A stretch of 63,143 bases of DNA, counting the filler, from Atractiella rhizophila (Eukaryota): the NCBI GenBank assembly GCA_021432655.1. It is 3 parts of 3 records of this genome, joined end to end, with 100 filler letters (N's around TTAATTAATTAA, not from the genome) between each part and the next. Parts side by side here need not be neighbours in the genome. Positions count along the whole stretch, not along the records: positions 24,513 to 35,736 come from MU271252.1; 2 more parts are not named here. The stretch is one strand, 5' to 3'. Shown here one piece after another: positions 24,413 through 61,826 of the stretch. Within the stretch, counting starts at the first letter, position 1. Each line of letters starts with the position of its first letter. The notes beneath the pieces were generated by a model. That model did no database searches, had not been told where the DNA came from, and was given only the letters and a program-made list of their open reading frames with translations. Made by a program: the position numbers and the translations under genes.

Positions 24413-24512
24413 NNNNNNNNNNNNNNNNNNNNNNNNNNNNNNNNNNNNNNNNNNNNTTAATTAATTAANNNNNNNNNNNNNNNNNNNNNNNNNNNNNNNN
24501 NNNNNNNNNNNN
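24413..24512. other. Artificial scaffold linker N44-TTAATTAATTAA-N44
   Basis: Exactly 100 nt with a central motif giving stops in all six frames. Identical linker at 35737-35836. Confidence 0.97.
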
Positions 24513-25820
24513 GACGTCATGGCGCACGATGGAGGAGACGGTGGCGGGGTGAGCATCATTGTGCTTTCTTGTTGTGAGTCGATGTGAGGGTGATGTTGGG
24601 GTCTGAGCAGGAGACGAAGGCTTTTAAGGGATATGGATGACATCGTGTGAATAGAATAGTTCGGAGAAGTTCGAATTCCCATCTTTCAAGATATCAGCTC
24701 ATCGATTGACAAAGCGGCCGGAAGCCGTTTGTCCAATTCATCGGTTCAACTCCGGCCGCGGGTACTCTCAGCCGGATGACCTGTCTGAATTGTCAACTGA
24801 CTGCCAGTGCAGTGCCAATGCAGTCAGCGCACTGTCAGCGACTGCCTGTGGATGATGGAGTGTGGATTTAAAGCCGAGTAAGCTCGAGTAAGCTTGCCCA
24901 AAGCAATCAGATGGATCTGCAAAGTAGATGATGCTTGGTTCTGTGAGCGGTTGTAAGCTCAGTTGCTCGTTGATTCATACGCGGCAGAAATCGGAAAGCA
25001 AAAAAGCTGAATTTGTTGGCTTTGGTGATTCACCCGACGCATGGAATGTGTGATCCAAATGGAGCTAGATCCAATATTGCAAGGACAAATTACGACAAAT
25101 TAGGATGCCTAGGTTCATTCCAGCATGCAACAATTGCATTGACACCAATTAACACCTGTTCGTCAGGCTTTCAATGCATTCGTGCCAAGCTGCAACCCCA
25201 ATCCTTTCAGCGTAAACGATCTAACCGGTCAGGATCATGGTTCAGCGCCGAAGAAGAGCCAAAAACCTTCCGTTCCTTTATCCCCCACTGCCGTTTTCTA
25301 TGCAATCCTGGAAAGACGACATACTGTAATTGACAACTCCATCTTTCCTCTTCTCCCTCGACTCCATTGGGCCGGCTGAGATGCAGACGTCATATCGACA
25401 GTCTCCTAGAGCTCCGAGGAAGGCACTCTGGTGATCCCACGGTGATCCGTTGGCTTCCATCTCATCCTTCGTCTCCAAACCAAAATTGTTTGAAAGATGT
25501 CCGAACCACATTCGGAGCCGTTAAGGTCCGCATCGGACAGCACGGAAGCTTGCACAACACGTGATTTTGACAATTCTTCAAGTCTCCTCACGTATAGTCT
25601 GCCTTTTGTACCCTTTTCTTGAGAATTTACTGCTTCGCAAAGCGTGATGCTTGTCTATCTATGAGCAACACTATTCGTTTGGTTTTTTCTGTTGTCGCAG
25701 AGCTCTCCACGTCGAGAACCAGCTGGCGACATAAAGTCGAACTTGGTGAGATTTCTTTTGTGCACTTCTAGCGTGAATTGATCTAATGATGTGGTATATT
25801 AGTGCCATATACGCTGTGAC

Positions 25821-27842
25821 ATGGTATTCTACATTCTCGGTGGTTCGTGACATTCTCTATCAAAGCAATTCTATTCCAACAAGAATATTCACTTTGTGTT
25901 GTGTTATAACAGTTGGTTCTATTGGCTCTCTCCTCGCATACCAACTAAGACGCATTCCGAATCCGCCTGAAGTCCGTCTCCTCTTTCCCCCGTCTTCGAA
26001 CGTCAAAGCCCTCCTCTATCCGTCGGGTCTGCCACCACGGAAACGCGTTTCCGTCACGGTCGAAAAGAACGGGGTGGAGTACACAGAGGAGGAGTATCCC
26101 GTCGCAGTGATGCGGACATGGGAGACGTCTTATACGGTCTTCGATCCGAAGAAACCCAGGAAGAAGTGGAGCGAGGTGTGGTGGACGAAGAGCGTGATGA
26201 AGCGACGGAAGATCGTGGAGGCGAATAAGGCGGATTTCTACTTTGACCGGGGGAGGTGGTGGAATAGAGGCCCACCTAGCGACGTCGCCCGACGGAAGGT
26301 CCTTGGTGCGGTTATAGAGCGGTGGAGGATGTCGACGTCTTGATCTTGACTACGAAGGCGAATGCGAATTTGCAAATGCTCCAGCATCTCAAGGACAAGA
26401 TTTCGGCTAGTAGCACGGTGGTGATTTTACAGAATGGGATGGGACAAGAAGACGTCATCAGCGATGCGTTTTGGCCGGATGAGACCCAACGTCCGAGCTT
26501 TGTAATTGGGACGACGCTCCATGGAGTCCATCGAAAAACAAAAGCCAGCTTTGGGAAGATACACGTCGTACATGCGGCCGAAGGTCCAACCAACTTCGCA
26601 GTCATCCCCAACCAAGCCAGTATCGAGGCTCTCCTGTCTTTCCAGGAGAATTCTGACGATCCCTCCCCGAACCCGATCCTCGACCCTTCCGCCGACACAC
26701 CAGTCGATCCATCCAAACACCTGCCGTCATCCCCTCCTCCCGCTCTAACCTCCCTCCATGCTACTCTCACAGCACTCACAGCGCTCCCATCCACCAACGT
26801 CCTCCCCCTATCCATCCTCCGTACCCTTCAACTCCAGAAACTAACGATAAATTGCGGAATAAACTACCTCACCGCCATCCTGGACTGTTTCAACGGCGAC
26901 CTCCTCCGCGCTCCCCATCTCGCTCGGACAAAAGCCACCTTCCGTTCCCTCGCAGAAGAGGCCTCATCAGCCTTCTTCGCCGAATCCGTACGTGCGGGCG
27001 CGAGCTATCCGGAGGCTCAGAAGTCGTTTCCTCCCAACCATCCACTAGGTGTGGATACGCTGGAGAGGAGGCTGTGGGATGCGACGAGGGCGACGAAGAA
27101 GAACGTGAGCAGCATGCTGCATGATCTGAGGAGGGAAAGGGCGACAGAGACTCGTTATATTGCTGGATACCTACTCGCTTTAGGAGCCAAGAATGGGGTC
27201 TCCATGCCGACCGTTCAAGCCTTGCAGGATGAGATGATGGCGAAATCGAACCTGATATTGGAGGGACGGAGGCTGAGGGAAATGGAGAAGCAGGAGATGT
27301 TTAAGTTACGCAGGGAGAAGGAGGATGAGGAGAGAGTGCAGTGGTTACAGGAAAGGAAGAGTCGGCGACAGAGCGTGGTGACGAAGAGAGAGAACAGGTG
27401 GGGTAACGAAATCGTGAGACAGATGAGCCTTTCCGATCCCAACCACGCTACCGTTCTCTCGCCATACATGGAGAAGAGGAAAGAAATGTTGAAGAGGACG
27501 GCGATGGCGATGGAGCGGTTCGTGATACATTGTGAGAGGACGAAGCGCAAGGCTCAGAAGGGTAGGCGAAAAATGTTGGCGAGGGCGGCTTTCATTATGA
27601 ACCGGCTCGTGGAAGAGACAAAGATGAACTCAGAGGAGAGGGTGAAACGGTGGAAAAGGAAGATATTCCACAGAAATCGGTTCTTGGAGGCTGTGATGGC
27701 GGCGAGAGTGAAAGCGACGAAGAGGGCGAAGCACGAGCAGCGGTTGAAGGCAGACAAAGCTGCACGGGAAGAACGACTGCAGGCCCGCGCGAAAGAGAAG
27801 GAACGCCAGTTTGTTGTGACCACGCTAGCGAAGGATTCCTAG
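25821..27842 (+). CDS. Ketopantoate reductase (PanE/ApbA)-like protein with long basic C-terminal extension; one apparent frameshift near 26320
   Basis: Spliced MVFYILG|VGSIGSLLAYQL (intron 25843-25912). Then DVLILTTKA, VVILQNGMG, QKLTINCGINYLTAILDCFNGDL, SSMLHDL, TETRYIAG. Confidence 0.8.
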
Positions 27843-28276
27843 CAGGGCAACGGGGGACAGTATTGCGAGAGGTTGATAGAGAAGAAGCCTCCGATAGGAG
27901 GTTCTGGGAGGTAAGGTGGAGGAACCTGAAAGGTAGAGCAGGAGGCGAGAAATGGAAGGGGATACAGTCGGCCTCGACAATCCCAGTCGACGTCTTCCAT
28001 TGCGAAGTTCGTGCCAGAGGTGGGAAAGTCTCTGGGGGACATCAAATTGGAAAGGACTCTAATCCTGGAGCCTGGGGAGCGAGGACTAGTGAGCACAGGT
28101 TTCAGGCGGTTCAGTATGTTGCATCTTCGTAGTTCTCATGTGTATACTCAGCACATATCACAAAAGTATCTAAAACAGTAGTGGCTTCATACTTATGCTA
28201 CAACAATATTTTCATCTCCATAGCATCTTGACAAATCGATTGATCGCAACATACCCGCCACGAACCCTTTGCAGTC

Positions 28277-29782
28277 CTAAAATACAGTGCCATCGCTCAG
28301 GATGTTAATTGGGGGTCCCCCTCCCTCTCTCTTCTTCTTCGCAATTTCCCTTCCCTATATACACCACCACCAATGAAAGTGTGCCAGGAAGATCGAAAGA
28401 AGAGAGGTGACATACCGCTTTCCACGTTCCCCCTTCCAACACCTGCGCCAACTGCAACTCCTCCCCCAACCCACTCTTCTCCCTCATCTTCAGCGCTATC
28501 CTATCCAACATTATCACCGTGATCGCTCTCCACTCCACGATTGCAGGATGGCTCGCGGGCAGAGATGGGAGATGTAGGAGGTCGATGGTTTCTTCGGTTT
28601 GTGGGGCGGAGGAAGGTTTGGGAGGAGGAGGGAGGTTTAGGGCTTTGTATAAGGAAGGGAGAGAGGAGGGACGGAGGGAGAGGAGAGAGAAGTCGAGAAG
28701 CAGACCGCCGTTTCTGTACTCTGGGAGGCCGGTGAGGTGCTGCTTGTTGCGGAAGCGGAAGTTGAGGTTTCGTTCGAAGACCTCGATGAGGGAGTAGGTC
28801 ATCCCTTTTGCATTCTTCCGTCAGTGTTGAAATTTTGAGGAACGAGGAGAGACGAACATTGCGATAACTTGTGGAAAGCCACTTCCCCTCCGCTTCCTCC
28901 TCGACTCAGAAAGTCACACCTCCAAACATCACCCATGCTCCTCCCCTCCATACTCAACCCTCCTTCCCGATCCTTAGGCCAGACGTCTAAGCCTTCCAAA
29001 ACGACTTCCCACAGAGCGAGGACGTCGACGGAATACGCCTGGGAAGAGGGCGAGGGGACGGATTGGGTGGAAGGATGGGAGAGGAGGTAGTCGACCATGT
29101 TCCCTGGCCGTGACGTGCCGTTGTGGGAGAAGAATGGAGAAGCGGGGAGGAGAGATCCAAGGCGAATCAGCAGGTTGGAACGTCCGGCAAGACCGACCAT
29201 CGGGTTGGAAGGTGAAACTTGGAAGCCTTCTTCTAGCTTAGAGACTGTGAGAGCCTTCAGCCCCTCCGCTGTTCACCATCAGCCACATTCAGCAACCACT
29301 TAGTAGGTGGAATGACGAGGAGATGAAGTGACGAACAATCAACCTCTTGCTCCCCACGAGAACTGAACATCCCATCCTTAAACATCTGCAAGCTCGCCAA
29401 CGCCAACCCTTCGCTCCTTCCGATCCTCACCTCCTCCCCTCCCGCTCCACCACTGCCGACAGTGTATCTCCATTCGTTCCCCGCTCCAGCATCCACGAGC
29501 ACGGACACGACGACGAGATCCACCAAGCGGCGGGAGATCTCGATGGCGTCGAGGGAGGCGGATTGCCAGGAGGCTATGAGTGCCTGTAAGGGGTCGGGGT
29601 TGCCTGGCATGGGAATGAGGTGGCGCCAGCGACCGTGGGGCGGAATGGATGCATAATCGCCTGCATAATCCCTCTGCCAGTCGAATACAGCAGGTTAGCG
29701 TTCGATCGGGAGTAATGATGTGGAAGAAGAGCTCACTTCGATCAGTGACTGCACGAAATCGACTATGTCTGTCTCTTTGGAT
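28277..29782 (-). CDS. URC4: URC4/URG3 (DUF1688) uracil-catabolism protein; main body (5' end lies in the mirrored block)
   Basis: SKETDIVDFVQSLIE|RDY..SIPPHGRWRH, LVDLVVVSVLVDAGAGNEWRY, GRSEGLALAS, FHKLSQW, LTGLPEYRNGGLL, VEWRA, LAQVLEGGTWKAGR, PPINILSDGTVF*. Confidence 0.9.
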
Positions 29783-30260
29783 GAAGGTGACGAAGTGTCC
29801 ATGGCGAAGAAGAAGAAATGCTTTATGAGCTAACTGTAAGTTTGTCTCGATGCTCATGAAATATAGCTACGCCGCGTGCGACGGAGGTTACAGTATAGGG
29901 GGTGTAAAGAAGTCCTGGAGTGGACAGGCGTAGAGCTTCTTAACGTCAACGTTATGACGATGGAGCTACATAGGTGGTAACATCTAAAATATGCGAAAGT
30001 GCGGAGAGTTCGAGGAAAGCGCCCATCTCTTTTTAAGCTTAAGCGCACCTGCACGATAAAGCCGCTATAGGGTACCTGAGAACTGCTAAAAGTGTGAGTT
30101 AGACTCCCTTCGACTACTTAGCGGACTATTCCTCTGCCTTTACCGGGAAACCCTACTTCCCCCTTCTCTATTGAAGGAGATGCTGCCGTTCGCTAAACGC
30201 TACGAAACCTTGCTTCCCCCAAACCCAATACTTCTAACCGACGTACCATTGACCCTAACT
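29783..30260. CDS. 3' end of an LRR/F-box-like protein, readable only as the complement left-to-right
   Basis: Complement gives LPLLHRYRFFFFTKYSIDIQTELRVLYIDAAHAASNVISPTFLQDLTCPHLEELQLQYCYLDVSTIVDFIRFH... One +1 slip near 30108, then ...YEDWLHGNWD* and an AATAAA downstream. Family call is weak. Confidence 0.55.
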
Positions 30261-30564
30261 CGTCACAAATCGCTACTATAATAACATTATTTTATATGAG
30301 CTCGCAACACACGCTAGTTATCAGAGCAAACTTATCTCGTCTAGACTCAAGAGCTCTCGTCAGCAGAGACACTAGGACAGAGTTACGGCTCTTCGATCAA
30401 CAGTCTTACACACCTAACTACCCCTGTCATGACCGCTACCCTTTTCATAAGTTAGTCGACGAAAGTTGCGCGTTAAGAGCGCAAACAAATACAGCTCTTT
30501 CACGACACGTTATTCTATCTACGTCTTTGCCTGTTTAATTACCACCATACTATTCCACCAGTGA

Positions 30565-33194
30565 GATTAGGAGGAGAAGGAGGAGGAGTAGACATACTGA
30601 TGGCGGTAAAGGTGGCAGATTTCTGAGTTGTTGGTTTAAGCGTAAGCCATGGTAGGGAGGTTGTAGGAAGTTTCGGTTAGGGAAGAGCTGATGGAAAGAG
30701 CCCTTTCAGTACTGGTTGAACTTCCACTTTAGCATGGGGAGGAATTGTCCTCTTCCACTTCCTCTCCCTCTTCCCCGATACAGCTGTGGCAACCGAAGTG
30801 TAAGCTAGGTTCGTATGTGCTACCAGCACCTAAGTAGGAGGAATTTTCAAGACTACTCAGCAGAGGGTAGGCAGTTGAACTGTCGTTGGAAGCGAGGAGG
30901 GCGGGGAGCGGTGAGAAGACCCTGCTCCAATTGACGGCGGGTGAGAGAGGTAGAAACCGCGAAGACAAGGTAGACACGAGAGTCAGCGAGGAAGAGCTAG
31001 GGAAGAACAGACGCGGCAAGGAAGAGAAGGAGAAGAGCGGAGAACCGATCGTGGGAGAGGCATAGGAAAGACTGGCGCGCGAGTATGAGGAGTAGAACGG
31101 CAGCAGCCTCAAGGGCGAGAAGAAGGGAAACGGAGAAGACGTGGGAGTCGGCTGGTTCCTTCCCGCTTTGCGCCCCCTCCTGCCTCAAGACCTACACGTA
31201 CTAATACCTCAACCCGCTACACCATCTTCTCCCTCTCGGACTTTCTGCACTCTTGTAGAAGTACTGTCCCAGATGGCGGCAGGCACACACGCTACTCTCA
31301 CATCATCCTCAACAGGCACCAACCTCGCGTTACTTTCGTTGCCACCCATTTGCTCCATACCGGTTCCAGACCCTTCGGACTTTACGCAGAGCTATAAAAT
31401 ATAGAGGTGGGGTCTGTTCCTACAGTAAGAGCGAATAACAGGCTGCATCTAAGACTAGGCAGTTGTGTCAAGATTCCACCTTCTTCAGTCATACTTCAAC
31501 GCGCTCTTTCCTGTTTCGTGCTTGAACGCCTTGTGAAGTAGTAGAAGTACGAGTCGCGATCTGTCCTGCTGGTAGTTTTAGAAGTTAAGCAAGAAGCGGC
31601 GAACATCACGAAGGCTCATCGGTGTCGCGTTCTTAAGACCGTTGTAGAAGCTCCAGGGAGGGCAGAAGGCGACGTGGTTCGGCGAAGGCGGGAGAGGTTT
31701 GTGAGGTCACGGTCACGGTTGACCGCATCTGAGACCTACGTCCACAGGACAACAGAGGAGTTCCTTGGCTTACATTACGAGTCGGCGACGACGACCCCTA
31801 TTTCACGAAGCACCCCACTCCGACTTCCCTAAAGCGCCCGCGTCTTACGGCTCTATCCCCTTCTCGCTAGCCTCCACCTCCTACGCCCACTACTTCCTCT
31901 CTTCGCTACGTTAATTCCTATAACCCTCGCACTAATCGCCACTTTAGACGCTCTTTTGGACTCCAAGTTTAAAGTCGTTACAACAGGCTGGACACAAGAA
32001 ATTTTAACGCGCTCCTTTAACGTACGATGTCAAGATAGGTGTCAGAGTTTTCGTCGCCGTAAATCAAGACGTCTACATTAGTAGTAGGCGGTGGATAGTT
32101 GTTCATCGGCTACGAACCATCCCGATACTGCTCGACGGTTAGCATACTGTCGGTGAAAGGAAAAGTCAGATCCTAGCTACTCCACGGCGAGGAAAGCTGT
32201 GAGTTCGCGATCAGGTTAGTATCACTCTTACGTGTTTTGGCGTATAAGGATAGGTTATTGGTTGCGGTGTGAATTTCTTTCTACGCTCCATTGTCGTATA
32301 TATCGTCGACAAAGTATAAAGACAATAAGCAGTGCTGCGATCTCGAAGGAGTTACTACTAATTAGGAGACTGCTCAGGTTGAAGACCGTGTTGTAACCGG
32401 TGTAACTTGTATAAGGAGAATCCTTCTTCAGGTTTCATCAAGGTACGTCTGTTACGACCGATGATGGCCTCTTCGTTTCCTAGGTCCCGCTTGTTACCAC
32501 TAACCAACTACTTACTGAACCTGTTCTGTTCGTCGAGCCAGGGTTCTACCTACCTCAGGTGCCCAGTACCGCGGTGAGCGACTACTTTCACCTCGAACCT
32601 ACTGAATCGTGGAAATACACGAGGACCGAGTCAGGTAATCTAATTAGGAAGTACGTTACCTTAGTAAGTAAGCAGGTGAGTGTGATTAGTTTGTACTTCT
32701 CACTTCTCTTCCGTCTCTGCTAGAAGCCATATATGGAGTGGACTTGACAGAGTGCAACCTCTTCGTATATGCTTTCCGGTGGAGAGGAGAGCGAGGTAGG
32801 AGGAGTAGAGGTTGCACTGTGAACAGTGCTCTTTCGCGGTGGTGGCGTTACGTCACGCTGTTCCATCTTACTCTCGACTTGCGTGGAAGAAGTGTCAGAG
32901 GTGGGTTGGAGGTCGCGATAAGTGGGAGCCAGAGGAGAGGTGGTGGAGGCTTAGTAGTTAAAGGTACGAGAGGTAGCGTAGGAAGAGGAAGGTGGAGGGG
33001 AGAAGGGAACGCGAGGGTAATTGTAAGGGCCGTTGTCGCCGCCACTCCCTTAAACCCAGGAGATGGGTGAAAAGGTGACGGGCGACGTCTAGGGTAGGGA
33101 GGGAGAGCTCGTGAACGGCCCGCTCGCAGCCTCCCTCGCTCCACTAAAGAACCATAACCCACTCACGCCTTCTGACCCGCCCCCTCTCACTGTA
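30565..33194. CDS. UBX2/FAF2-like Cdc48 cofactor (UBA-like, membrane hairpin, UAS, coiled coil, UBX), readable only right-to-left without complementing
   Basis: MSLSPAQSSALTQYQEITS..ARQVLEREGWDLQRAVEKW..LITLPISLIASLLSFITRIL..LPEFLRCGYSEALQAAKNELKILMVVL..ILVWGGDI..VAVKLTDGRRLIRTF..LVMTFPRKVV..DEEEEEED*. GT-AG introns at 32885-31959 and 31524-31472. Confidence 0.93.
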
Positions 33195-33456
33195 CAGAGG
33201 AGAAAGTTTCAGCCTACAAGCGCACAAAACTCACGTCAACGACACACACTATAATAGTCGCTCTAATAACATCACATCCTTATTCGCTCACAGCTCAACT
33301 GCACCAACACCAACCCCGCTGTTGAACCACTGTTATTCCAAACAAACCAACGTGTAATTCCAAATATGGGTTTGTTGTCTAGCAAAAGACGTTCGTCAGG
33401 TCGAGGGGGAAACGTGAACTGAAATGCTCGCAGGTTCAGAAAATGTGCATTATTTT

Positions 33457-33907
33457 TACCTCTTGCTAGTTCACTCAAAAAGAAGTTGGGGTGTCTGACA
33501 TAAAAGAAAGTCGTTCTCGATACCAGCTTAAGTGCTGAACGACACGATGTCCCTGTACAACACCTGGAGATGCAGGGGGCGTTTACACGGCGATGGTTGG
33601 CAGAGTAGTGGACGTTCCTGGTGCGTAGGCACGTCGAGTTGAAGCGGCGGCATCTACTCCTCCCGTTCCGATAAGGTCCAGTTATGTAGTGGATGCGTGA
33701 GACACCTCGACACTCCCCCTAGCCTCTCTCGCTGCTGTCGTAATTGTCCGACCGATGCTTCCTACCTGCACTCAAGAAAGAGAAGAGAATGCTCGACAAG
33801 CTACATAGCACAGACCTGCCCAACACCTTACAACTCACGACTAACTTTGAGAAACACCCACCACCCGCTATCACAACTTCCTACACACCTCACGATGAGT
33901 CTTCATC
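33457..33907. CDS. RPS21: 40S ribosomal protein S21 (eS21), readable only as the complement left-to-right
   Basis: MENDQ|[83 protein letters not shown] (88 aa). GT-AG introns at 33472-33551 and 33769-33872. Confidence 0.97.
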
Positions 33908-34175
33908 TCTATGCTGCTAAGACGTAACGTAAACAAGATAATAAGTGGAGTCGGTTACTAACTCGGGAAGGATCGGTGTGGTGACGATTCGTTTTGTGTC
34001 TTCGGTAATCAAAGCAAGGCTGATGCCTTGATGAGGACGGGTTGAGGCTGTGATTCGAGGGCAGGTGAAGCTTGAAGCTTGGGTAACGTCGATCTAACGT
34101 CTGAAGGTCTCTAACGTCTTGTGCATTTCATCACGTTTCTTGTTGTCCTTTCACGGTCTCTAACTAGTTGAGTTC

Positions 34176-34289
34176 TACAGGAGACTTTCTCAGTGTATAG
34201 AAGCGAGGGAAGGGTCGTCAGGCACTCTGTACGAGGTTTCACAAACTTCGTCGCGACTTCCCGCTCTTACTCATGACCCTGCACCTAGA
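34176..34289. CDS. URC4: 5' end of URC4/DUF1688, readable only as the complement
   Basis: MSSERVTYLRSLP(+1 slip)AVRETCSKVFEAALKGENEYWDVDL, continuing in frame into SKETDIVDF at 29782. Confidence 0.88.
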
Positions 34290-34314
34290 NNNNNNNNNNN
34301 NNNNNNNNNNNNNN

Positions 34315-35736
34315 CAAAGATGAACTCGGAGGAGAGGGTGAGGAGGTGGAAAAGGAAGATGTTCCACAGAAATAGGTTCTTGGAGGCTGTGACGGCGGCG
34401 AGAGTGAAAGCGACGAAGAGGGCGAGGCACGAGCAGCGGTTGAAGGCAGACAAAGCTGCACGGGAAGAGCGGCTGCAGGCGCTCGAGAAAGAAAGGAAAG
34501 CCGGTTTGTTGTGACCACGCTAGCGAAGGATTCCTAGCAGGGCAACGGGGGACAGTAGAGCGAGAGGTTGAAGAGAAGAAGCCTCCGATAGGAGGTTCTG
34601 GAAGGTAAGGTGGAGGAACCTGAAGGGTAGAGCAGGAGGCGAGAAATGGAAGGGGATACAGTCGGCCTCGACAATCCGAGTCGACGTCTTCCATTGCGAC
34701 GGTCGCGTCAGAGGTGGGAAAGTCTACAGGGGACATCAAATTGGAAAGGTCTCCAATCCTGGAGCCTGGGGAGCGAGGAGTAGTGAGCACAGGTTTCAGA
34801 GTTTGAGGTGGTTCAGTATGTTGCATCTTCGTAGTTCTCATGTGTATACTCAGCACATATCACAAAAGTATCTAAAACAGTAGTGGATTCATACTTATGC
34901 TACAACAATATTTCTCATTTCCATAGCATCTTGGTAAATTGATCACAACATAGTCGCCACGAACGCTTTGCAGTCCTAAAATACTGTGCCATCGCTCAGG
35001 ATGTTGATTGGAGGTCCCCCTCCCTGTCTCTTCTTCTTCGCAATTTCCCTTCCCTATATCCACCACGACCAATGAAATCAGCGTTCCAGGGATATCGCAA
35101 GAAGAGAGGTGACATACCGCTTTCCACGTTCCCCCTTCCAACACCTGCGCCAACTGCAACTCCTCCCCCAACCCACTCTTCTCTCTCATCTTCAGCGCTA
35201 TCCTATCCAACATAACCACCGTGATCGCTCTCCACTCCACGATTGCAGGGTGACTCGCGGGCAGAGAAGGGAGATTTAGGAGGTCGATGGTTTCTTCGGT
35301 TTGTGGGATGGAAGAAGGTTTGGGAGGAGGAGGGAGGGTTAGGGCTTTGTATAGGGAAGGGAGAGAGGAGGGACGGAGGGAGAGGAGGGAGAAGTCGAGC
35401 AGCAGACCGCCGTTTCTGTATTCTGGGAGGCCGGTGAGGTGCTGTTTGTTGCGGAAGCGGAAGTTGAGGTTTCGTTCGAAGACCTCGATGAGGGAGTAGG
35501 TCATCCCTTTACATCCTTCCATCAGCGTTGAGATTATGAGGAACGAGGAGAGACGAACATTGCGATAATTTGTGGAAGGCCACTTCCCCGCCACTGCCTC
35601 CTCGGCTCAGAAAATCACACTTCCAAACATCACCCATGCTCCTCCCCTCCATACTCAATCCTCCTTCCCGATCCTTAGGCCAGACGTCTAAGCCTTCCAA
35701 AACGACTTCCCACAGAGCGAGGACGTCGACGGAATA
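34315..35736 (+). repeat. Diverged direct copy of 27619-29035 (3' ends of the KPR-like and URC4 genes); probable second haplotype
   Basis: Colinear near-identity with scattered SNPs and indels. Bounded by a 25-N gap and the 100-nt linker. Confidence 0.93.
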
Positions 35737-35836
35737 NNNNNNNNNNNNNNNNNNNNNNNNNNNNNNNNNNNNNNNNNNNNTTAATTAATTAANNNNNNNN
35801 NNNNNNNNNNNNNNNNNNNNNNNNNNNNNNNNNNNN
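35737..35836. other. Artificial scaffold linker N44-TTAATTAATTAA-N44
   Basis: Identical to 24413-24512. Confidence 0.97.
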
Positions 35837-39800: not shown

Positions 39801-40347
39801 CTGGATTTCTCAGCGAGTCTCAAGTATTCGGCTGCGCTGGCGAGAGCATTTGTTGACAGACGTATGGGAGAAGGTCGAAGACGAGGGGATTATATGTGGA
39901 CTTTTGAGAGGAGTTGGTTGAAGGACGAAGCCTCAGAGGTGAGTCTCATTTATCTCTGGAACTTCAATGGATCTTGAGAACTGAATCCGGTCACAGGACG
40001 AAGCCCATTTACTTCAAATTCCATACTTCAATCCCCTTAATGCCGCCTTCATTTGCTCACAGTACTCGATCGACGATATGATCGCAATGAGTGGACGGCA
40101 ACGGAAGGCCCTATGTCCGCCTTCCATATGCTTGCCAAAAGCGGTAGAAGAGATGAACGAGCGGCTGGGGAGAGATGTAGATGATATCCTTCTCGAGAGA
40201 AGCATAGGGAACGAGGTATCTTCATCAAAGGCACGTCTTGATGGATGGAAGCACGAGGGCTGTCGAGAAGACGACGCCGACGAGATTGAGATTGAGACCG
40301 GTTTTGATTATGATTTCACGATACCAGAAGTGTTCGAGGAGTCGTGA
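36863..40347 (+). CDS. Large acidic/disordered protein with C-terminal XPF/ERCC4-like and HhH-like region; Zip2/SHOC1-like meiotic crossover factor candidate
   Basis: Multi-exon with GT-AG introns (e.g. 37182-37231). C-terminal LDLVERH..DYLIVDGTSCVIF..FDTILIVFE..EDEAHLLQIPYFNPLNAAFICSQYSIDDMIAMS. Confidence 0.55.
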
Positions 40348-43300
40348 CATGATGAAGACAGCTGGTCGCCAGGTGCTGGGAAGACGTACTGTTTTGTGTT
40401 GTTGTAAGAGTTTAACCTTCGTATGCTTTGCAGTTCTGGTCATCCAAGCAACACATTTATGACCCTCTTCGAATATTGTTACAACACAAATTTAAGTGAG
40501 TTCTGCTCCTGCGACAGCAAGAAGATCGTTCTGGCACCCACCAAGATGTTAAACATGATACATGACGAAAGTCAGAAGTGTGGGCAATTCTAATTTTTGT
40601 GTGGTGAAAAGGAAGCTCTCATCCATGCACCAAAACAACAAATGGTCAAGCCAACAATAAATGGAGCATTGATATCCAGGACGATCAAACTTACTCCTAA
40701 ATATAATATTTGAGCGCGTTCAGAACTGATCTTGAACGACCTTGGGGCTTCAGACAGAACCCAAAACAAGGCTGCACACAATCCTGTTCGCTTCACGCGA
40801 CGCTTTTGAGAGAAGAAACAGAGATCACAGACACATTCTATTGAAACCAATCACCAGAATATGAAGTACGACTAACACACCTTGTTAGAACAACAACAGG
40901 TTGCTTCTTGAAATTGTAACAAGAAAAACTGAAACCAAAGATCAAAAACCAAGAAAGAGATTGAAACCAAGAAACGAATTCACCAGAGAAATACGAAGGA
41001 AACAATACAGCGACCGTAAACAAAGATATAAACAGAAACTAATCTTCGTCAAAAGAAATCGAAACGCCGAATCGAAAACTCGTCACACCACAAGGTACGA
41101 GGGTTTGGATAATCTTCACGGTGGTGCGGTCCACTCCTTCGATGGACACGTCGAGGCCTGAAGCTTCCGCCGTCAGGATCTTCAGGTTTTGCAGGGGTAA
41201 CGCGGATCGTCTTAATATGCTCGAGAACTTCTTGACGAAACGAAAGACCGGCTTCTCAGTCTTGAATATCTCGAACGTAGCTAACCGTCGTCCCCTCAAA
41301 AGGAGGGTGAGGGAGACGGTCCACATCTCTCGTGCTTCTTCAAATCGCTCGGAGCAAGCTTCCACCAAAACAAGGAATGGGAACGTTTGCTCGTACAGCG
41401 CCATCAACAGGGGTAGTACCCTGTTGGACAGATTTCTGAGAACAGGGTAAACATTCGTAAACCAGCTCTTTAAAAACCCTTTGGTAGCCATCATGCCCTC
41501 CTCTAACCGTGCCAGGATCAGCTTAAGCTCAAATCCCAACACTGTCTGAGGAAGGCTTCTGCAAGATCGCAGGGCCACAACAACAATCTCAAAAAGGGTG
41601 GAGTTAACCCATAGAAGGTCCGCCAACTCTTTCCAGAGTTGGACGTCCACTTCTTCTCCGTTATTGGAGGCGGCCTCGCAATTGAGGACCTTAGAGGGTA
41701 CTGCGACGCATCGCTGCTCCGAAACGAGGCAAGACTGGGACTGGATCGACGAGACATTGAGAGGAAGAGGATCGACAATCAACTCAGTCTTCGAAACGGA
41801 AGGAGGATTCGAGGTTATGGGACGAGGAGAGGGAGAGAACAGCGACGAGATCGTCTTGACCGTCGCGGAGAACTTGGAGGCAATACGATCTCGCGAACAT
41901 CTTAAGGCAGGAGTGGGAGAGGTCAATATAGGAGCAGCGTTCTTCACAGAAGAACGCATCAGTCACTGCAAGGAGAAGAGAAGTTACATTGCAAGACGAA
42001 CCACGCTGTTGCTCGCTGGAGCAGCGCGGCATCGATTGTGGAGGATGATGACTTCGGGTTGTTCATTCTCGCGTGGGATGAAAGGGATAGGGTCGAAGCC
42101 CTCGTTTTGGATGGAATCGACAACGCTTGTTGCAACGCAAGTTCGAGCGGGGGAGAGGAGCCTTGCAGCGGGAGAGGAGAAGCGCGACGATTTGGTGGCC
42201 ATCTTGAGCGTTAAAATTGAGAGCTGTGGATGTGAGGAGAGGGAGACGGCGATGAATACGTGTTTTGAGAGGAGTAGACGTCCAAAAAAGCGAATAATAT
42301 GCTAGTGCTAATTGCGAAACGAAATGCTCTGCTTGCTTTTGCCCGAAATGCTGAAAATGAGAACAGCTATTCGTCGTCGTAGTTTTTTGATTGTGGTCGT
42401 AATTGGAGGAATTGTAAGCAGTCGTTAGCCCCTTTTTGTGCCCTTCCCTGCGCTCCCGCTGCTGGAACCCAGTATGGGAAAATTCCCATCATCCCGCCTG
42501 CTTACTCCGCCGTCATCCTACATCACCTCCATTCCTGCCAGAATCTCTCATGAGCACCACCCGTCTGAGGAGTCATATTTGGTGGATATTATGTATTTTA
42601 TGGTCATGTAGAATCGACAAGGGATTCGGTGAAGGATGGCAACTTGAAGCAATTGCGGTGTAGAAGTTTTCGTGAGAAATTGCACTGCGGTGCCAGATTT
42701 GTGGCTTGATACGGGTAACAATTAGCAGTCGGTAGCTGCTGCCATCGATTATTCGTGTATCTGCATGATTTGGCGAAGAAGCTGAGAAAAACAAAGTCCC
42801 AACAATGCATGACGGGAGCGTGGATTAGGTGCTGAAGTTAGAGATCCTCGGGGAACAGAGAAGAGGCCAACTCTTCTACGCGACGTATGTTCTCCTTCGT
42901 CGATATATGACGTCTCCAGTACCATCACCCTTTCCGTCCTTGCTTATGACTCCGTAAACCCGTAGTTGCAAAAGTACGGCTAACTCGCTTAACCTTAGTG
43001 AACTTCCCGCTGACCCATCTGAAGATTAAATTGGCTGAGAACTGAGTGTGCTGGAGAGTTCGATATGGATACAGATATGGATAGTTGTTGTGGCGAGTTA
43101 GCGCCAATACTGGTCAGTTCTGTTTAATGGAGCTTCAATTTCAACAGTCCCTTCAAGGTAACATAGGTCGTCATATGTGTACTACTTTGAGAATCGTCGA
43201 GCGCATCAGGACGCCATTACATCTGTCACAGGTCGTTGTGCTTCTGCTGCAATGCTGGTTCTTGGCGCACAATGGATGGCTCGTTCACGAACTTCATCCA

Positions 43301-43540
43301 ACATGACTTGTGTTTCCTCCAACATCGTCTTCAGGAGTTGCAGTTTGATGAAGGCCGCGTTTCTGATCAGAAAACGAGTCGGTCTAAGAACACGGACGAA
43401 TTCAGCCCTTTTGTTTCTGGAAGATGATGGCTACAATCAGGGATCTTACCAGTCATAATATTGATATTGAGGTGTTTGTTGTTTGGCTCAAAGCAGTCGA
43501 GGAGGACGGGTACCTTCCCTGGCTGTCCTTTTCACATCAA
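40170..43540 (-). repeat. Copy A of ~3.4-kb duplicated unit (inverted relative to 57159-60790)
   Basis: Reverse-complement colinearity throughout. The encoded ORFs are nearly identical. Confidence 0.93.
41039..42202 (-). CDS. Orphan ~367-aa two-exon protein, copy A
   Basis: MATKSSRFSSPAARLLSPART..SNSV|NAAPILTSP..ISFDED*. Frame and intron (gttcgt..ctgat..aag) are conserved in copy B. No recognisable domain. Confidence 0.6.
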
Positions 43541-43544
43541 AAAG

Positions 43545-43775
43545 AGAAAAGCGAATAATATGCGAGTGCTAATTGCGAAACGAAATGCTCTGCTTGCTTT
43601 ACTCGAAATGATGACAGTGAGAACAGCTATTCGTCGTCGTAGTTTTTTGATGGTGGTCGTAATTGGAGGGATCGTAAGCAGTTGTTAGCCCCTTTTTGTG
43701 CCCTTCCCTGCTCCCGCTGCTGGAACCCAGTATGGGAAAATTCCCATCTACCCGCCTGGTGACTCCGCCGTCATC
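43545..43775. repeat. ~230-bp direct repeat of 42286-42515 (upstream region of the orphan gene)
   Basis: aaaagcgaataatatgc..gttagccccctttttgtgcccttccctg..gggaaaattcccatc occurs twice here, and inverted near 58420-58640 and 62580-62810. Confidence 0.85.
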
Positions 43776-44567
43776 CAGCCACGCCTCTCTTCTCAGTACG
43801 TTCAATCCGCTTGTTCTTCCATACAGCGCTTTTCGACAGGCTTTTAAGCAATAGACAGAGATATCAGCCATATTACGCGCGTTTCCTGGAATGAAGTCGT
43901 TGCCCGTAGTGCTGCGGAAGGTTGATGGGAAAGAAGTGCAGAGCTGCGGGATAAAAGTACTCTAACCATCACCTGGCCGCCTCATGTATTACAATCGATG
44001 AAGAATAATCGATATAATCACCTATGTTTGTATCAAAGTCATAACTGGTACGTGAGGCGATGAAATGTCAATGCGCACGCTGAACAAAGTGTGTAATCAT
44101 CCCCTCATCTAACCCTCGTCTTTCTTCCCCGTGAGGATTCCAGAGCATTTTGGTCCTCTCTATCCATTTCATTATTCTTGTGCCCTGGCCTGAACACGTA
44201 GTCGCGAAACTACGGCTGAATTGCTACCCCGCTCACGTGACCATTTCAACACGTTGTAGCTGTGGGAGAGAGGAGCAAGGGGGGTGATGCTTTAGGAGGG
44301 CGCAAGTTGAAACGGTTTACTGTGAGCTTTACACTCTATTTCCATTTTTGAAGGGAATGAGAGGATGCAGCGTGTCAGCTGAAGTTTCGGATACGCGTCC
44401 AGCGTATATCTGAATGGCTGACTGTCGTGTATTTGAAGTTCTTATTAGTTGGTGCAGCACATTTTTATTGTGTGCACATTTCTTTGAAAAATCTCCTTTC
44501 GATGACTGGATTTATTCATGTAAGGAAGTTTCTGCATTTGGTTCCAGCTCCTGGAAATGTTGACAAG

Positions 44568-52102: not shown

Positions 52103-54536
52103 ATGGACAATAAGCACCTGCACAAGGCGTTGAATCGCAACTCGATGTACGAATTCGCCTCTCCAGACCTCGCTTCGTCGTCAGGTTCCCCAACTGGAAG
52201 CGTGGCGGCTGGAGGAATGATAGGGACGACGAAAACGCACTCGAGACTCTCATCCCTGTCCAAACTCGCCTCTCCCCTCTCGCTCAAGTCTTCCGCCTCC
52301 GCCGTGTTATCCACCTCGACCGCGAATCCAAATTCGACCCAGGAGCCAGCATCAGCGGCTGACAGTCAAGTGACCACCCCTACCAACGCGGCTGGAGCCA
52401 GGGATGAACCCCCCACACCTCCAGCCAAGCCGTCACCTCCTACCCGATCGAGCACTTACGGCACCGTGACCTCCTCATCGTCTGCGTCCTCGAGTACGAC
52501 CGTCACTCCTCCTGCATCCAACAGCCGTCCTATGCCACCCTCACACCGCAACTCGATCTCTACTCCCCCTCCGCCGTCATACGCCTCCACCTCCTCCCTC
52601 GACTTCGATTCTGACTCGGACGACTTCCCTTCCATGTCCCGCACTTCCTCTGTCAGCGGAGCTGGTGGCCCGCCAAGGGGAAGGGGAGCAAGCATCGGTT
52701 TGGGACTCAGCATACCTGGTTTCGCGGTCGCTAGTTCGAAGAGGAATATGGACTTTCATGCGCTCTTCAAGGGCCATGGAGGTGTACCAGAGGACGATTA
52801 CTTGATTGAAGACTATGGCTGTGCGCTTCAACGAGAGATCTTGTTGCAGGGACGACTGTACATTTCTGAACATCACCTTTGCTTCTACGCTAATATCTTT
52901 GGTTGGGTAACAACTGTTCGTTTTTCTCTTCCTCCGTTTCAGTTAATATTCTGCTTGATCGACATTCTTCATTGATATTCTTCTGGTTGCCTCTCTCGCT
53001 GATGACTGGATGATGGGTTCAGTTGGTGATACCCTTGGAAGACGTTACCCAGATCGACAAGAAGATGACCGCCTTCGTGATCCCGAACGCGATCCAAATA
53101 ACGACCCAATCGAAACGAGAGACCTTTGCCTCCTTCCTCTCCCGCGACACCACCTTCGACCTCATCTCCTCGCTCTGGCGCGCCATCCATCCCCACGGCG
53201 TGCCCTCCACCTCCGCCCTCCCGACTGGAACCGGCAACCTCTCGTCCGCAGATGAGGCAGATCAGAAACGCCTTGGACACGAAAAGGACGTCACTGAGAT
53301 CACCGCTACGGGAGAGGGAAGACATCCACCCACCAAGTGTGCGTGTAAAGAGCATTTTAAGAATACTGTCCTGGAAACTTCCTTCGTTGGGAGCCCTGAG
53401 AAGATTTATAATCTGCTTTATACGAGCGAGGCTTTCTTCAGGGGTTTCTTAGAAGACGATCAGAAGTGTACTGGTCCGTTGCACACCGTCTCTCTGCTAT
53501 TTTGAAAGCGGTGCTGAGTTAATACCATAGAGGTAAATATTGGCGAATGGAATCCCAAGAAAGAAGGGTCCCACCTCCTCTCACGGGAAGTAACGTACAT
53601 CCGACCTTTGACGGGTCCCGTGGGACCTAAACAGACGAAGGTAAGTCTCGCACCCAGTCCTTCTCCCTCTATCATTGCTAAATGGACGAGGGAACAGTGC
53701 GAGATCTCCGAATCCAATGAGCACGTCGACTTTGAAGAATATACCTCCCTCGTCTCTCTCACGCGCACACCGGATGTCCCCTCCGGAAATGCTTTCGTAG
53801 TCAAGACCAGGCTTTGCCTCAGTTGGTCAAACGGGGGCGGGACGAAAATGGTGGTCACTTGCGAGCTAGAATGGAGCAAGAGCTCGTTCCTTAAAGGTAC
53901 GTCGTATCCTTCCTTGATGGAGTTGAAAATATTGATTCTGGCGTTTGTGAAACAGGTATAATCGAGAGATCGGCGGTGCAGGGCCAAAAATCCTATCACG
54001 CAGACCTGGCGAAGGCCATGCGTGCCTACATCTCAGCTCATCGCTCCGAATTCGCAGAAGAAGGAGCAGACGACCTTGCCGTGGAAGAAGAGGAGCCTAC
54101 TGCCACCGTGACGACAGAGGCTGCTGTTGCGGCCCCTTCGATATCGATGGAATTCACACCACGGACCATCGTCGCTCTGCTCCTGATCACCTTCCTTCTC
54201 CTCTCCAATCTTTACACCCTCACCTCGTCCCAACAGCAGAAGAATCCTGTTGCGTATTCGATCACTGGGGGGCCTTTGGGACTGTCATATCAAGGGACCG
54301 CTAAGAGTAGAGAGGAGGTTGCAGGTGCTGTTAGGTCGGTGTTACAGGAGTGGTTGCAGACCAATGCGGGTCTTTACCACAAGATTATATAAAAGGGAAA
54401 CGGAAACGGAAAGCGGAAAGAGGAGGATGTACCCTGGGATGTGGAGGTGGACGACGTCGCGAGGAAGTTGGATGAGCTGGAGGGGAGGATTGTGAGACTG
54501 CGAAAGAGCGTCAAGGAGCTTAAGGGGAAGGAGTGA
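52103..54536 (+). CDS. GRAM + VASt domain sterol-transfer protein (Lam/Ysp2/Aster family); in-frame TAA at 54390
   Basis: GRAM: RNMDFHALF..VPEDDYLIEDYGCALQREILLQGRLYISEHHLCFYANIFGW..KKMTAFVIPNAIQI. VASt: TRTPDVPSGNAFVVKT. Then a TM segment and a terminal coiled coil. Confidence 0.9.
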
Positions 54537-55044
54537 ACGTTTGCGAGGAGGGAGCAAGATCTTCACACAATTTCCCCCATGTTCGTCCATTGTTTCTATT
54601 CAGGATAAATTCATGTGTCTATCAGAGTCCTTTGCATGTATGCATCGCAACATTCGAATTCCATTGAGCCTGACCTCCATTCTCCTAACTTGAATAACGC
54701 GATCATCAGAGTCCGTCAAAGCTGAGCTGGAGCCGGATTATGCAAGGATGGATGGTAACTTTGAATGCACGTAGGCGCTTTAACGCTGGTGGCCGGCTTA
54801 CACTATCCTCCTTCGGGCAATGAGAGCGAATGCACCAGTTGTAACATGGCCGATTGCGAGGCGCTATGCGCGCACGGCTGACCTCTCACCTTGGTGGGAA
54901 CCAAGGCTCTGCTCCCCGTCAGTTCTCGGTTCGGTGAGTTCGAATGGGCATCCTGTGGTTGTTGGCGGCTGACAAGTCAAGGAACGGTTGACAGCAGATA
55001 CAGAAGAAGAGTTATATTGCGTATACTTTTATTGGCTGGAAGGG

Positions 55045-55050
55045 TATAAA
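55045..55050 (+). promoter_or_regulatory. TATA-like box of GST copy B
   Basis: TATAAA ~90 nt upstream of ATG 55137. Confidence 0.45.
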
Positions 55051-55136
55051 GATGCAGACTTCCCTATTCCTCCCTTCTAAGTTATCTCGCATCAGAAAAG
55101 CAGATATTAGAAAATCCTCACACTCAAGTCACCAGA

Positions 55137-56258
55137 ATGTCGAAAGCAGATATCTCTCTCTATTCCGGATTTGGGCTCAACGTACGTTTCCAATAGACCC
55201 AGTCCAACAGCTTACTGAGTCTGAGGGCAGCCATGGAAGGTAGCCATTGTCCTTGAGTGTTTAGGACTAAACTATGAACACGTCAATGTTGACATTTTGA
55301 CTGGTAAGCGCAAACTGTTCGCAGAACGTCGTTGACCTTAGACAGGCGAGCACAAACGGCCTGCTTACACCAAAGTAAGACACTTTCTCTAAGAGCCGTA
55401 ACAATACTAACTCTCTTCTTTTCAGCTCAATCCCAACGGCAGGATCCCGTACGCTCTCTTCCTTCCGTAGAACAGAATCACAACCCAGCTATACTGCTTC
55501 AGAGCCCTCGTCGATCATAAAAACAAGGACATGGTGGTATGGGAGTCCAATGCCATCTTGCAATACCTTGTCGACAGGTAAATGAAACCTACCTGGGGTC
55601 AGAAGTTCTGAAGCCTCGGTTTCTACAGGTACGATACCGAGAGGAAATTCTCAGCAGCTACCAATGAGGAAAAGGTTATACAGGCACAGTATCTCTTCTT
55701 CCAAGGTACAACTTCTATTCGCACCATAATGAGCAAGAACTGAAGAAATCGAGTGTCAGCTAGTGGCCAAGGACCATAGTGCGTGCTCGTTATTTCCTTC
55801 TCGAGGAATTGTCTCACATTCCATCTAGCTATGGTCAATACGCCTGGTTTGCAGGTGGATATCACGGAGAACAGCTTCCCACAGTTACCTCACGTTACGA
55901 AGCCGAGATCAACCGAGTTCTAAGCGTCCTTGAAGCCATTCTGTCTAAGCAAGAGTGGCTCGTGGGTTCCAAGTGCACTATCGCCGACCTTTCTTTCCTC
56001 ATGTACAACCTCATCGTATGTCCTGCTCTAGACTAATTTGTCTGATCTGATGAAATTCGACTCTGGCTGTGAACTCAGCCATTAGGACCGTATACTGGTG
56101 CTCCTGGTTTGAAGTTTACCCCATCCGGGGAATACCCCAACGTGACGGCGTGGCACGAGAGAATGGTGAAGATGGAACCGGTCAAGAAAGTCTTGGATCA
56201 GAGAGAAGCCATTGTTCAAGAGTTCATGAAGAAGAAGTTTGGAGGCAGTGAAGCTTGA
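55137..56258 (+). CDS. Glutathione S-transferase, Ure2p-like (copy B), many small exons
   Basis: MSKADISLYSG..PWKVAIVLECLG..LNPNGRIP..VWESNAILQYLVDRYD..ASGQGP.YGQYAWF..CTIADLSFLMYN. Confidence 0.92.
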
Positions 56259-57897
56259 ATGTTGTCGTCCTTTGTGGAGAATTATCTATCAATTTTTACA
56301 GCCCAGCCCCAGCTGAATCCCCCGGCAATTAACTGTCACGTAGCGTGCCAGCAGCTCGAGGCTCTGTTTCAAGGGAAAAAGTGTTCCGACGAACAGCAAT
56401 TACGTATCTCAGGAAGCGAGATAGGAGTGGGTTTTGCAGTGGAGACTGATAAAGCGGCGAAAAGAACGTCTCACCTTGGATTCAAGTGTGGACATGAACC
56501 AAACGTGCTGCATGATCCATGACGTTCTATTTCACATCACGACCCTATCGATTCTATTATTATTGTTCCCCGTTCGCGCTGAGGTGCCTGCGGGAAGTAG
56601 GAAGGAAGGAGGCTTTAAGTCACAGCGTAAAATGGCATGACCAATTTCGGCTTGGTAGGATCTACTGTATCAATTCTGTCTGTCCTGTCATTCCTCTTTC
56701 ACTCCTGATCTTCGCTACTATCATCTAGCCGGAAGTCCGTCGAGAAGGTCTGCGAAAACCCTTACTCATCCAGGATCCTGCAGGACATCCACCACGATCA
56801 TGGTGTGCTCAAATAGTCTGACAGTCATTTGAAATATTTGCTCGTCACAACGTGCCATCGTTCGTCCTTCATAGACGAATTCCTCAATACAGTAAATTCG
56901 CAGAACGCCTCAGTCTATAAATATGTGTTAATTAACCCCTATTTCCGAACCGCGAACAGACGAGGGCTTTTCTGCCAAAACGGGGAGTGGGTTGAGGGGT
57001 ACTAGCTACTGCATGCTGGCTATAAAGCTGCAACCCTCCTTCCTTCAGTACCCATTCGTCAGACGGTCAAACGAAATTTGAACATCCCCACCAAGAATGT
57101 GCAGAGCAGACGTCAGGCTCACTGTGGGTTTCCAAGAAGCTGCAACCAAACGGATATTGATGTGAAAAGGACAGCCAGGGAACGTGCCCATCCTCCTCGA
57201 CTGTTTAGAGCCAAGCAACAAACACCTCAATATCAATATTATGACGGGTAAGACCCTTGCTTGTACTCATCTTCTTTCAGAAACAAAAGGGCTGAATTCG
57301 TCCGTGTTCTTAGACCGACTCGTTTTCTGATCAGAAACTTGGCCTTCATCAAACTGCAACTCCTGAAGACGATGTTGGAGGAAACACAAGTCATGTTGGA
57401 TGAAGTTCGTGAACGAGTCCATCCATTGTGCGCCAAGAAGCAGCATTGCAGCAGAAGCACAACGACCTGTGACACATGTAATGGCGTCCTGATGCGCTCG
57501 ACGATTCTCAAAGTACTAGTTCACATATGACGACCTATGTTACCTTGAACGCACTGTTGAAATTGAAGCTCCATTAAAGAGAGCTGACCAGTCTTGGCGC
57601 TAACTCGCCATAATAACTATCCATATCTGTATCCATATCGAACTCTCCAGCACACTCAGTTCTCAGCCAATTTAATCTCCAGATGGTTCAGTCATGAGTA
57701 ACGGGAAGTTCACTAAGGTTCAACGAGTTAGCCGTAGTTTTGCAACTACGGGTTTACGGAGTCATCTTGGAAGGCAAGCAAGGACGGAAAGGGTGATGGT
57801 ACTGGAGACGTCATATATCGACGAAGGAGAACATACGTCGCGTAGAAGAGTTGGCCCCTTCTCTGTTCCCCGAGGATCTCTAACTTCAGCACCTAAT

Positions 57898-58103
57898 TGT
57901 TGGAAATCGACGGGCTGAGGAGCGGAGCTAAGTACGACTTGGTTACGTTTGGCTGAGCTCTTGCAAACGCATGAGCACCAGGAAATGGAATTCTATGTGT
58001 TTATATAGCTTACAGCAGTGGCAACTAGAAAATAGTAGAACATTCCAGAAAACTAAAGAACTTTGCCACTGAGTGGCACGAAACTAGACTGCAAAATCCA
58101 ACA
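57898..58103 (-). mobile_element. 206-bp solo LTR (TG...CA), probably Ty1/copia type
   Basis: Termini TGTTGGA...TCCAACA. 5-bp TSD CTAAT (57893-57897 and 58104-58108). Absent at the homologous site in copy A (~42825) and copy C (~62270). TATATAA on the minus strand. Confidence 0.88.
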
Positions 58104-58738
58104 CTAATCCACGCTCCCGTCATGCATTGTTGGGACTTTGTTTTTCTCAGCTTCTTCGCCAAATCATGCAGATACACGAACAATCGACGGCAGCAGCTAC
58201 CGACTGCTAACTGTTACCCGTATCAAGTCACAAATCTGGCACCGCAGTGCAATTTCCCACGAAAACTTCTACACTGCCGTTGCTTCAAGTTGCCATCCTT
58301 CACCGAATCACTTGTCGGTTCTACATGACTATAAATATATAATATCCACCAAATCTGTCTCCTCGGATGGGTGGTGCTCATGAGAGATTCTGGCAGGAAT
58401 GGAGGTGATGTAGGATGACGGCGGAGTAAGCAGGCGGGATGATGGGAATTTTCCCATACTGGGCTCCAGTAGCGGGAGCGCAGGGAAGGGCACAAAAAGG
58501 GGCTAACGACTGCTTACGATTCCTCCAATTACGACCACCATCAAAAAACTAGGACGACGAATAGCTGTTCTCACTGTCATCATTTCGAGTAAAGCAAGCA
58601 GAGCATTTCGTTTCGCAATTAGCACTCGCATATTATTCGCTTTTCTCCAGTTTTTTGGACGTCTGTTCCTCTCAAAACACGTATTCGTCGTCGCCTCCCT
58701 CTCCTCATATCCACAAGCCTCCAATTTTAACGCTCAAG

Positions 58739-61801: not shown

Positions 61802-61826
61802 NNNNNNNNNNNNNNNNNNNNNNNNN

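Follow-up and report, generated by a model that had tools for sequence, protein, structure and literature searches.

Mirror-image block in an Atractiella rhizophila scaffold

In the window, the whole stretch of 63,143 nucleotides from Atractiella rhizophila (GenBank assembly GCA_021432655.1) that was analyzed here, positions 29783-34289 hold genuine fungal sequence whose letters stand in reversed order but are not complemented. An earlier note on this DNA, made from the sequence alone, had described this block as a mirror image, and base composition, contigs from public runs, the reading of a URC4 (DUF1688) gene that crosses the left edge of the block, and the reading of an eS21 (RPS21) gene inside it all agree with that description.

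29783-34289, no strand: mirror block of 4,507 bases, order reversed without complementing

The block lies at the coordinates that the note had assigned to it, and its limits are exact. In the true order, position 29782 is followed directly by 34289, and it is 29783 that adjoins the sequence gap now found at the other end. The left edge (29782|29783) is set twice over: contigs from runs X1, X2 and X3 have loose ends there, and one codon of the deposited URC4 protein straddles the junction once it is restored. The right edge (34289), the first letter truly following 29782, is immediately followed by a run of 25 N at 34290-34314.

Real DNA exhibits strand symmetry but no mirror symmetry, and a k-mer and its plain reversal differ in frequency. 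All six XY/YX dinucleotide ratios in the block fall on the opposite side of 1 from those of the rest of the window, for example TA/AT (1.65 in the block versus 0.64 outside), CA/AC (0.78 versus 1.19) and TG/GT (0.77 versus 1.21). A 5-mer log-odds score of the forward against the mirrored reading, trained on sequence outside 29001-35000, was below zero in each of the eight 500-base tiles from 30001 to 34000. Utilizing a 4-mer score cross-validated by leave-one-out training, the 57 tiles of 1 kb outside the block gave a mean of 51.7 (standard deviation 20.3, minimum 0.9), whereas the four tiles wholly within it scored -85.2, -56.9, -86.8 and -36.4, corresponding to 4 to 7 standard deviations below the outer mean. 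At a tile size of 250 bases, negative scores were obtained for 17 of 18 tiles within the block versus 18 of 234 outside.

Mirroring also lengthens the longest stop-free frame of the block from 151 amino acids as deposited to 323 amino acids; as a control, the forward reading held the longer frame in 11 of 12 other chunks of 4507 bases. The note had stated that the deposited block offers only junk open reading frames (ORFs), and indeed none of its nine stop-free frames of 94-151 amino acids matches a Pfam family. Its additional statement that 31405-32737 contains no ORF at all was slightly too strong, as a stop-free frame of 95 amino acids is located at 31545-31832.

Within the window, no further mirrored patch of about 500 bases or more was found with the 250-base 4-mer tiles; the lowest-scoring tiles outside the block (-15.6, -14.9 and -9.8) are isolated and form no run of negative values. 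A BLAST search of the mirrored window against the window revealed no properly oriented copy of the block, and tblastx with either version of the block, mirrored or deposited, found no match in the remainder of the window. A gene-poor region at 54085-56000, in which the longest stop-free frame is 102 amino acids and the forward-versus-mirror score is close to 0, is weakly asymmetric and not mirrored.

Contigs from public runs cross the left edge in the un-mirrored order

Four public runs (X1 to X4) contain part of the sequence 24600-34289, with sampled-word shares of 0.31, 0.29, 0.20 and 0.05. All four consist of contigs, X1 and X2 deriving from one sample and X3 from another, and these contigs were compared with positions 24513-35736. 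The match of contigs from X1, X2 and X3 stops exactly at 29782, beyond which the contigs overhang by a median of 132 (X1), 132 (X2) and 175 (X3) letters that place nowhere in the stretch as deposited. Read leftwards from 34289, the block agrees with the visible 30 letters of the overhang at 30 of 30 positions for X1, 30 of 30 for X2 and 29 of 30 for X3, the sole mismatch in X3 being a synonymous change in the URC4 reading. The overhang letters differ from the deposited start of the block, from its complement and from its reverse complement. The un-mirrored order across the breakpoint is thus carried by independent data from two samples.

Contigs of X3 and X4 show joints of 53-70 bases with the ends GT..AG or CT..AC. 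To judge by these ends, both runs look like transcript assemblies; none of the runs found for this stretch was listed as RNA. Contig depth was zero in all four runs across 11 bins from 30138 to 34262, with the flanks covered; this was not counted as evidence, the runs being made of contigs.

The URC4 gene across the restored junction

The left edge of the block interrupts a gene for a URC4/DUF1688 protein. The parts of this gene are as follows.

28280-29782, minus strand: URC4/DUF1688 from the third letter of codon 38 to the stop, by Pfam PF07958, by the match to protein P0001 and by spliced joints
29674-29736, 29269-29336 and 28804-28856, minus strand: URC4 introns, by joints in contigs of X3 and X4
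34176-34289, complement read left to right: beginning of URC4/DUF1688 (codons 1-37 plus the first two letters of codon 38), by tblastn with P0001

Outside the block the gene is matched by PF07958 with E-values of 5e-33 and 6e-32. In the exon at 29338-29673 the profile match begins only at position 47 of 420, which indicates that the N-terminus of URC4 is missing as deposited. P0001 is a deposited DUF1688/URC4 protein of 457 amino acids, assigned to Atractiella rhizophila by NCBI, and is 100% identical to the translation over that exon; it is annotated on a contig of 121,294 bases. Sequence outside the block encodes residues 39-457 of P0001 exactly, except for two codons split by introns, and residues 1-38 were found solely after un-mirroring when the deposited and the un-mirrored window were compared by tblastn. 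Exact 6-mers of P0001 cover 417 of its 457 residues in the window as deposited and 455 of 457 once the block is reversed in place. Codon 38 is split as CT|A between 34289 and 29782. Together, the codon across the restored junction and the mapping of residues fix both ends of the block and establish that the reversal occurred in place.

The proposal in the note that the plain complement of the block encodes the N-terminus of URC4 is thereby borne out, as residues 1-37 of P0001 map to it on un-mirroring. In the un-mirrored order the N-terminal part of PF07958 (profile positions 1-46) is joined to the rest of the profile, with one frameshift at codons 12-14. This frameshift arises from one extra base relative to P0001, in or beside a three-letter run at 34212-34214. 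Of the homopolymer slips that the note had suspected in the block, this extra base is the only one confirmed. Given an extra base inside the patch and exact coding outside it, base quality seems to be lower in the patch than in the flanking sequence. P0001 itself begins with the correct N-terminus and is free of the extra base, from which it follows that a correctly reading record of the locus exists in the species.

A complete eS21 gene in the mirrored block

Read as the plain complement from left to right, the block contains a predicted eS21 gene with three exons.

33457-33907, complement read left to right: eS21 gene of 88 codons, exons 33457-33471, 33552-33768 and 33873-33907

The two introns, of 80 and 104 bases, have the ends GTGAGT...AG. 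Reference sequences were obtained from metagenome contigs with a degenerate pattern for a short conserved motif, which fetched 87 loci; the design of the pattern accounts for nine shared residues, and the alignments reach far beyond them. Of the ORFs around the motif, 81 of 87 match the mirrored block (best E-value 5e-37) and 0 of 87 match the deposited block. The 25 best matches listed for the mirrored block show 54-78% identity over 67-101 amino acids. Five fished ORFs were tested against Pfam and all five proved to be PF01249, with scores of 121-131 bits. In a blastp comparison, the spliced 88-residue model aligns over its full length with the best of the fished ORFs, that of locus L039, at 75.9% identity over 87 amino acids (E-value 4.6e-48); the L039 ORF itself scores 131 bits on PF01249.

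The note had claimed that the plain complement encodes a perfectly spliced RPS21 and had named the failure of the reversed or complemented sequence to match eS21 and UBX proteins as grounds for abandoning the mirror interpretation. The three-exon model with its canonical introns, its full-length similarity to ORFs of family PF01249, and the 81 homologous ORFs that match on mirroring all speak for that claim. On the evidence of these sequence comparisons, the mirrored block holds a complete three-exon eS21 gene.

Further predicted genes in the block

Two further readings of the mirrored block, the UBX and LRR-like ones of the note, emerge from script translations.

30565-33194, plain reverse read right to left: candidate UBX-type gene
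29783-30112, complement read left to right: 110 codons forming the open 3' end of a putative gene

The candidate UBX-type gene has a putative ATG at 33194, a last exon with an open frame of 323 codons at 31536-30568, and a stop at 30567-30565. Further upstream, frames are joined by at least one small canonical intron, and no clear exon is apparent in some 700 bases at roughly 32040-32750. To judge by motifs in its translation, the plain-reverse reading from 33194 to 30565 would encode a protein with the layout UBA, hairpin, UAS, coiled coil and UBX. The reading at 29783-30112 is leucine-rich in appearance and runs into the gap, beyond which its 5' part would lie. A syntenic copy was sought by tblastx between the mirrored block, with eS21 masked, and the 87 metagenome loci, and no match was returned.

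Origin of the block

The block is not a real biological feature, and no new mechanism is needed to account for it. Replication, recombination and transposition are known to give rise to reverse complements and are not known to produce plain reversals. The proposition that a mirror copy is physically present in the DNA of the sequenced strain is exceedingly improbable, in that contigs from two samples cross 29782 in the un-mirrored order, and an essential eS21 gene with perfect splice sites, together with the start of URC4, could not persist in an unreadable state. The probability of an ordinary biological inversion, leaving a reverse complement, or of an insertion of foreign or junk sequence is next to nil. 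The only point in favor of junk is the lack of recognizable ORFs as deposited, but intact genes emerge from the block on mirroring. An inversion would preserve homology in a six-frame search, yet neither deposited strand matches any of the 87 eS21 homologues or encodes residues 1-38 of P0001, and the loose contig ends differ from the reverse complement of the block. With the loose ends, the P0001 start and the eS21 homologues all failing on the reverse complement, a biological inversion is refuted. The view taken in the note that software and not biology produced the block is therefore upheld: the run contigs continue un-mirrored, P0001 needs the un-mirrored order, and eS21 homology is seen only on mirroring.

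Instead, the block is a sequence-handling artefact, probably one of assembly finishing in which the extension of a contig end was written backwards. The features of the scaffold that bear on this proposal are the following.

24413-24512 and 35737-35836, no strand: spacers, each consisting of 44 N, TTAATTAATTAA and 44 N
34290-34314, no strand: gap of exactly 25 N, the only internal gap of the scaffold, directly to the right of the block
34315-35736, plus strand: redundant piece, a direct repeat of 27619-29035 (self-BLAST, 93.0% identity, 1,429 bases)
61802-61826, no strand: second gap of exactly 25 N, with flanks of normal k-mer orientation

The window is composed of three separate pieces joined at two identical 100-base spacers, both with stops in all six frames. 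As the two spacers mark the joins, 24513-35736 is a scaffold of its own of 11,224 bases, and it is this scaffold that carries the mirror block. At its seam, the block fills the space between a contig end and the 25-N gap and contains one extra base, and a 93% copy of upstream sequence lies beyond the gap. This second copy is bounded by the 25-N gap on one side and by a spacer on the other, and it contains the end of an ApbA-like gene and the 3' half of URC4, being matched by PF07958 and by residues 244-457 of P0001. In X3 and X4, contigs pass from one copy to the other (27619-29035 and 34315-35736), which suggests that the direct repeat represents alleles of one locus and not a true tandem duplication; the piece at 34315-35736 is probably an allelic or redundant contig. 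That the piece past the gap repeats upstream sequence at 93.0% identity implies a scaffold join that is faulty or allelic in its own right.

In the sequence of events that we envisage, the left contig would have ended at 29782 inside exon 1 of URC4, and a gap filler would have lengthened it by 4.5 kb into the scaffold gap. Since the right-hand piece is redundant, duplicating upstream sequence at 93% identity, the filler would have met no overlap there and would then have placed a fixed placeholder of 25 N and written the extension string reversed. Un-mirroring the block, by way of either the plain reverse or the left-to-right complement, which represent the two strands of one true duplex, restores the start of URC4, a complete eS21 gene, the candidate UBX-type gene and, for a fourth gene, its 3' end. 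That the block is reversed, where exactly it begins and ends, and how URC4 and eS21 read in it are direct observations, from which the causative step stands apart as the one that we infer. The same holds for the gap-filling bug favored by the note, which agrees with the contig end, the 25-N gap, the single indel and the redundant copy.

Several points weigh against the proposal or limit its support. Attribution to a long-read gap filler draws on the 25-N gap, the indel and the redundant piece. Neither flank of the second 25-N gap (61802-61826) is mirrored, which means that the bug, if there was one, was not active at every gap. The run support for the un-mirrored order amounts to 30 letters per loose end and not to the whole block, and the runs may or may not be the source of the assembly itself. 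Lastly, P0001 has the correct N-terminus without the extra base, so the reversal could postdate the assembly. An artefact that entered after assembly, by editing, format conversion, submission or downstream processing, including a deliberately altered control, would be consistent both with the existence of this correct version of the locus and with the fact that the window has already been processed, its pieces being joined by spacers of 44 N, TTAATTAATTAA and 44 N. We nevertheless judge such a late entry unlikely: the limits of the block fall precisely on a contig end and a gap, and the indel relative to P0001 belongs to the block itself. Both features are better explained by a patch that was made separately. 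Reversed writing of a contig-end extension during finishing is the explanation that we favor.

We tentatively propose, as a possibility that falls short of being probable, that a recurrent and so far undescribed failure of contig-end extension, of which the block would be one instance, leaves plain-reversed patches next to 25-N gaps of fixed size, both in this assembly and in other public ones. If this were true, genes would be silently lost from annotation and from completeness scores.

Comparison with known systems and consequences

Among open-access papers and preprints, we found no report of reverse-only blocks in deposited assemblies. The same operation is a standard way of making decoys for homology searches. 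In the part of the Dfam paper that concerns decoys, reversed but uncomplemented sequence serves as a decoy or null in homology searches, and k-mer discrepancies between reversed and real sequence are pointed out (PMC3531169). Like the decoy described there, the block keeps length, base composition and simple repeats, loses homology and has altered k-mers; unlike the decoy, which is deliberate and kept apart from the data, it sits within an assembly as genomic sequence.

The anatomy of the seam also resembles the work of gap fillers of the PBJelly type. Passages of the PBJelly paper describe the extension of flanks, define a gap as 25 or more N and mention 'overfilled' gaps that result from scaffolding errors (PMC3504050), and a passage of the horse genome paper gives 25 as the default minimum gap of PBJelly. 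The points in common are a contig end that would have been extended, a far side without overlap, a faulty join and a 25-N run. In those passages of the PBJelly paper, however, extensions are correctly oriented and no reversed output is described, and this program may or may not have been used on the present assembly.

With a chromosomal inversion or a mis-oriented contig the block shares an order that is flipped relative to its flanks and sharp breakpoints. Unlike an inversion, which keeps its genes on the other strand, the deposited block contains nothing that reads as a gene on either strand. A strand-symmetric test applied to a true inversion shows no k-mer asymmetry of this kind, whereas the asymmetry of the block is inverted.

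A reverse-only patch preserves length, GC content and repeats and thus passes ordinary checks. Here it hides the essential eS21 gene, truncates URC4 and conceals at least one further gene from six-frame and gene-prediction tools. An assembly of this kind would be scored as lacking these genes, and the value of the present observation is that of a quality flag. Since the ratio of k-mers to reversed k-mers flips sign in the block, a scan of the whole assembly with this measure, or BLASTX of reversed sequence, would reveal other such blocks. The fault is thus cheap to detect by either route.

Other features of the window

The window contains ordinary fungal genes, with ABC transporter, START, SET, GRAM and ApbA-like domains. 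Since its pieces were joined end to end, neighborhood across the spacers is uninformative on the genome.

A repeat family with 80-95% identity occurs in both orientations at 40171-43776, 57157-60784 and 61827-63143; for example, 40171-42828 and 60784-58104 are 91.4% identical. The open frames at 41039-41962, 41550-42305 and 58958-59902 within this family match no Pfam family. These repeats may represent a mobile element or a gene family.

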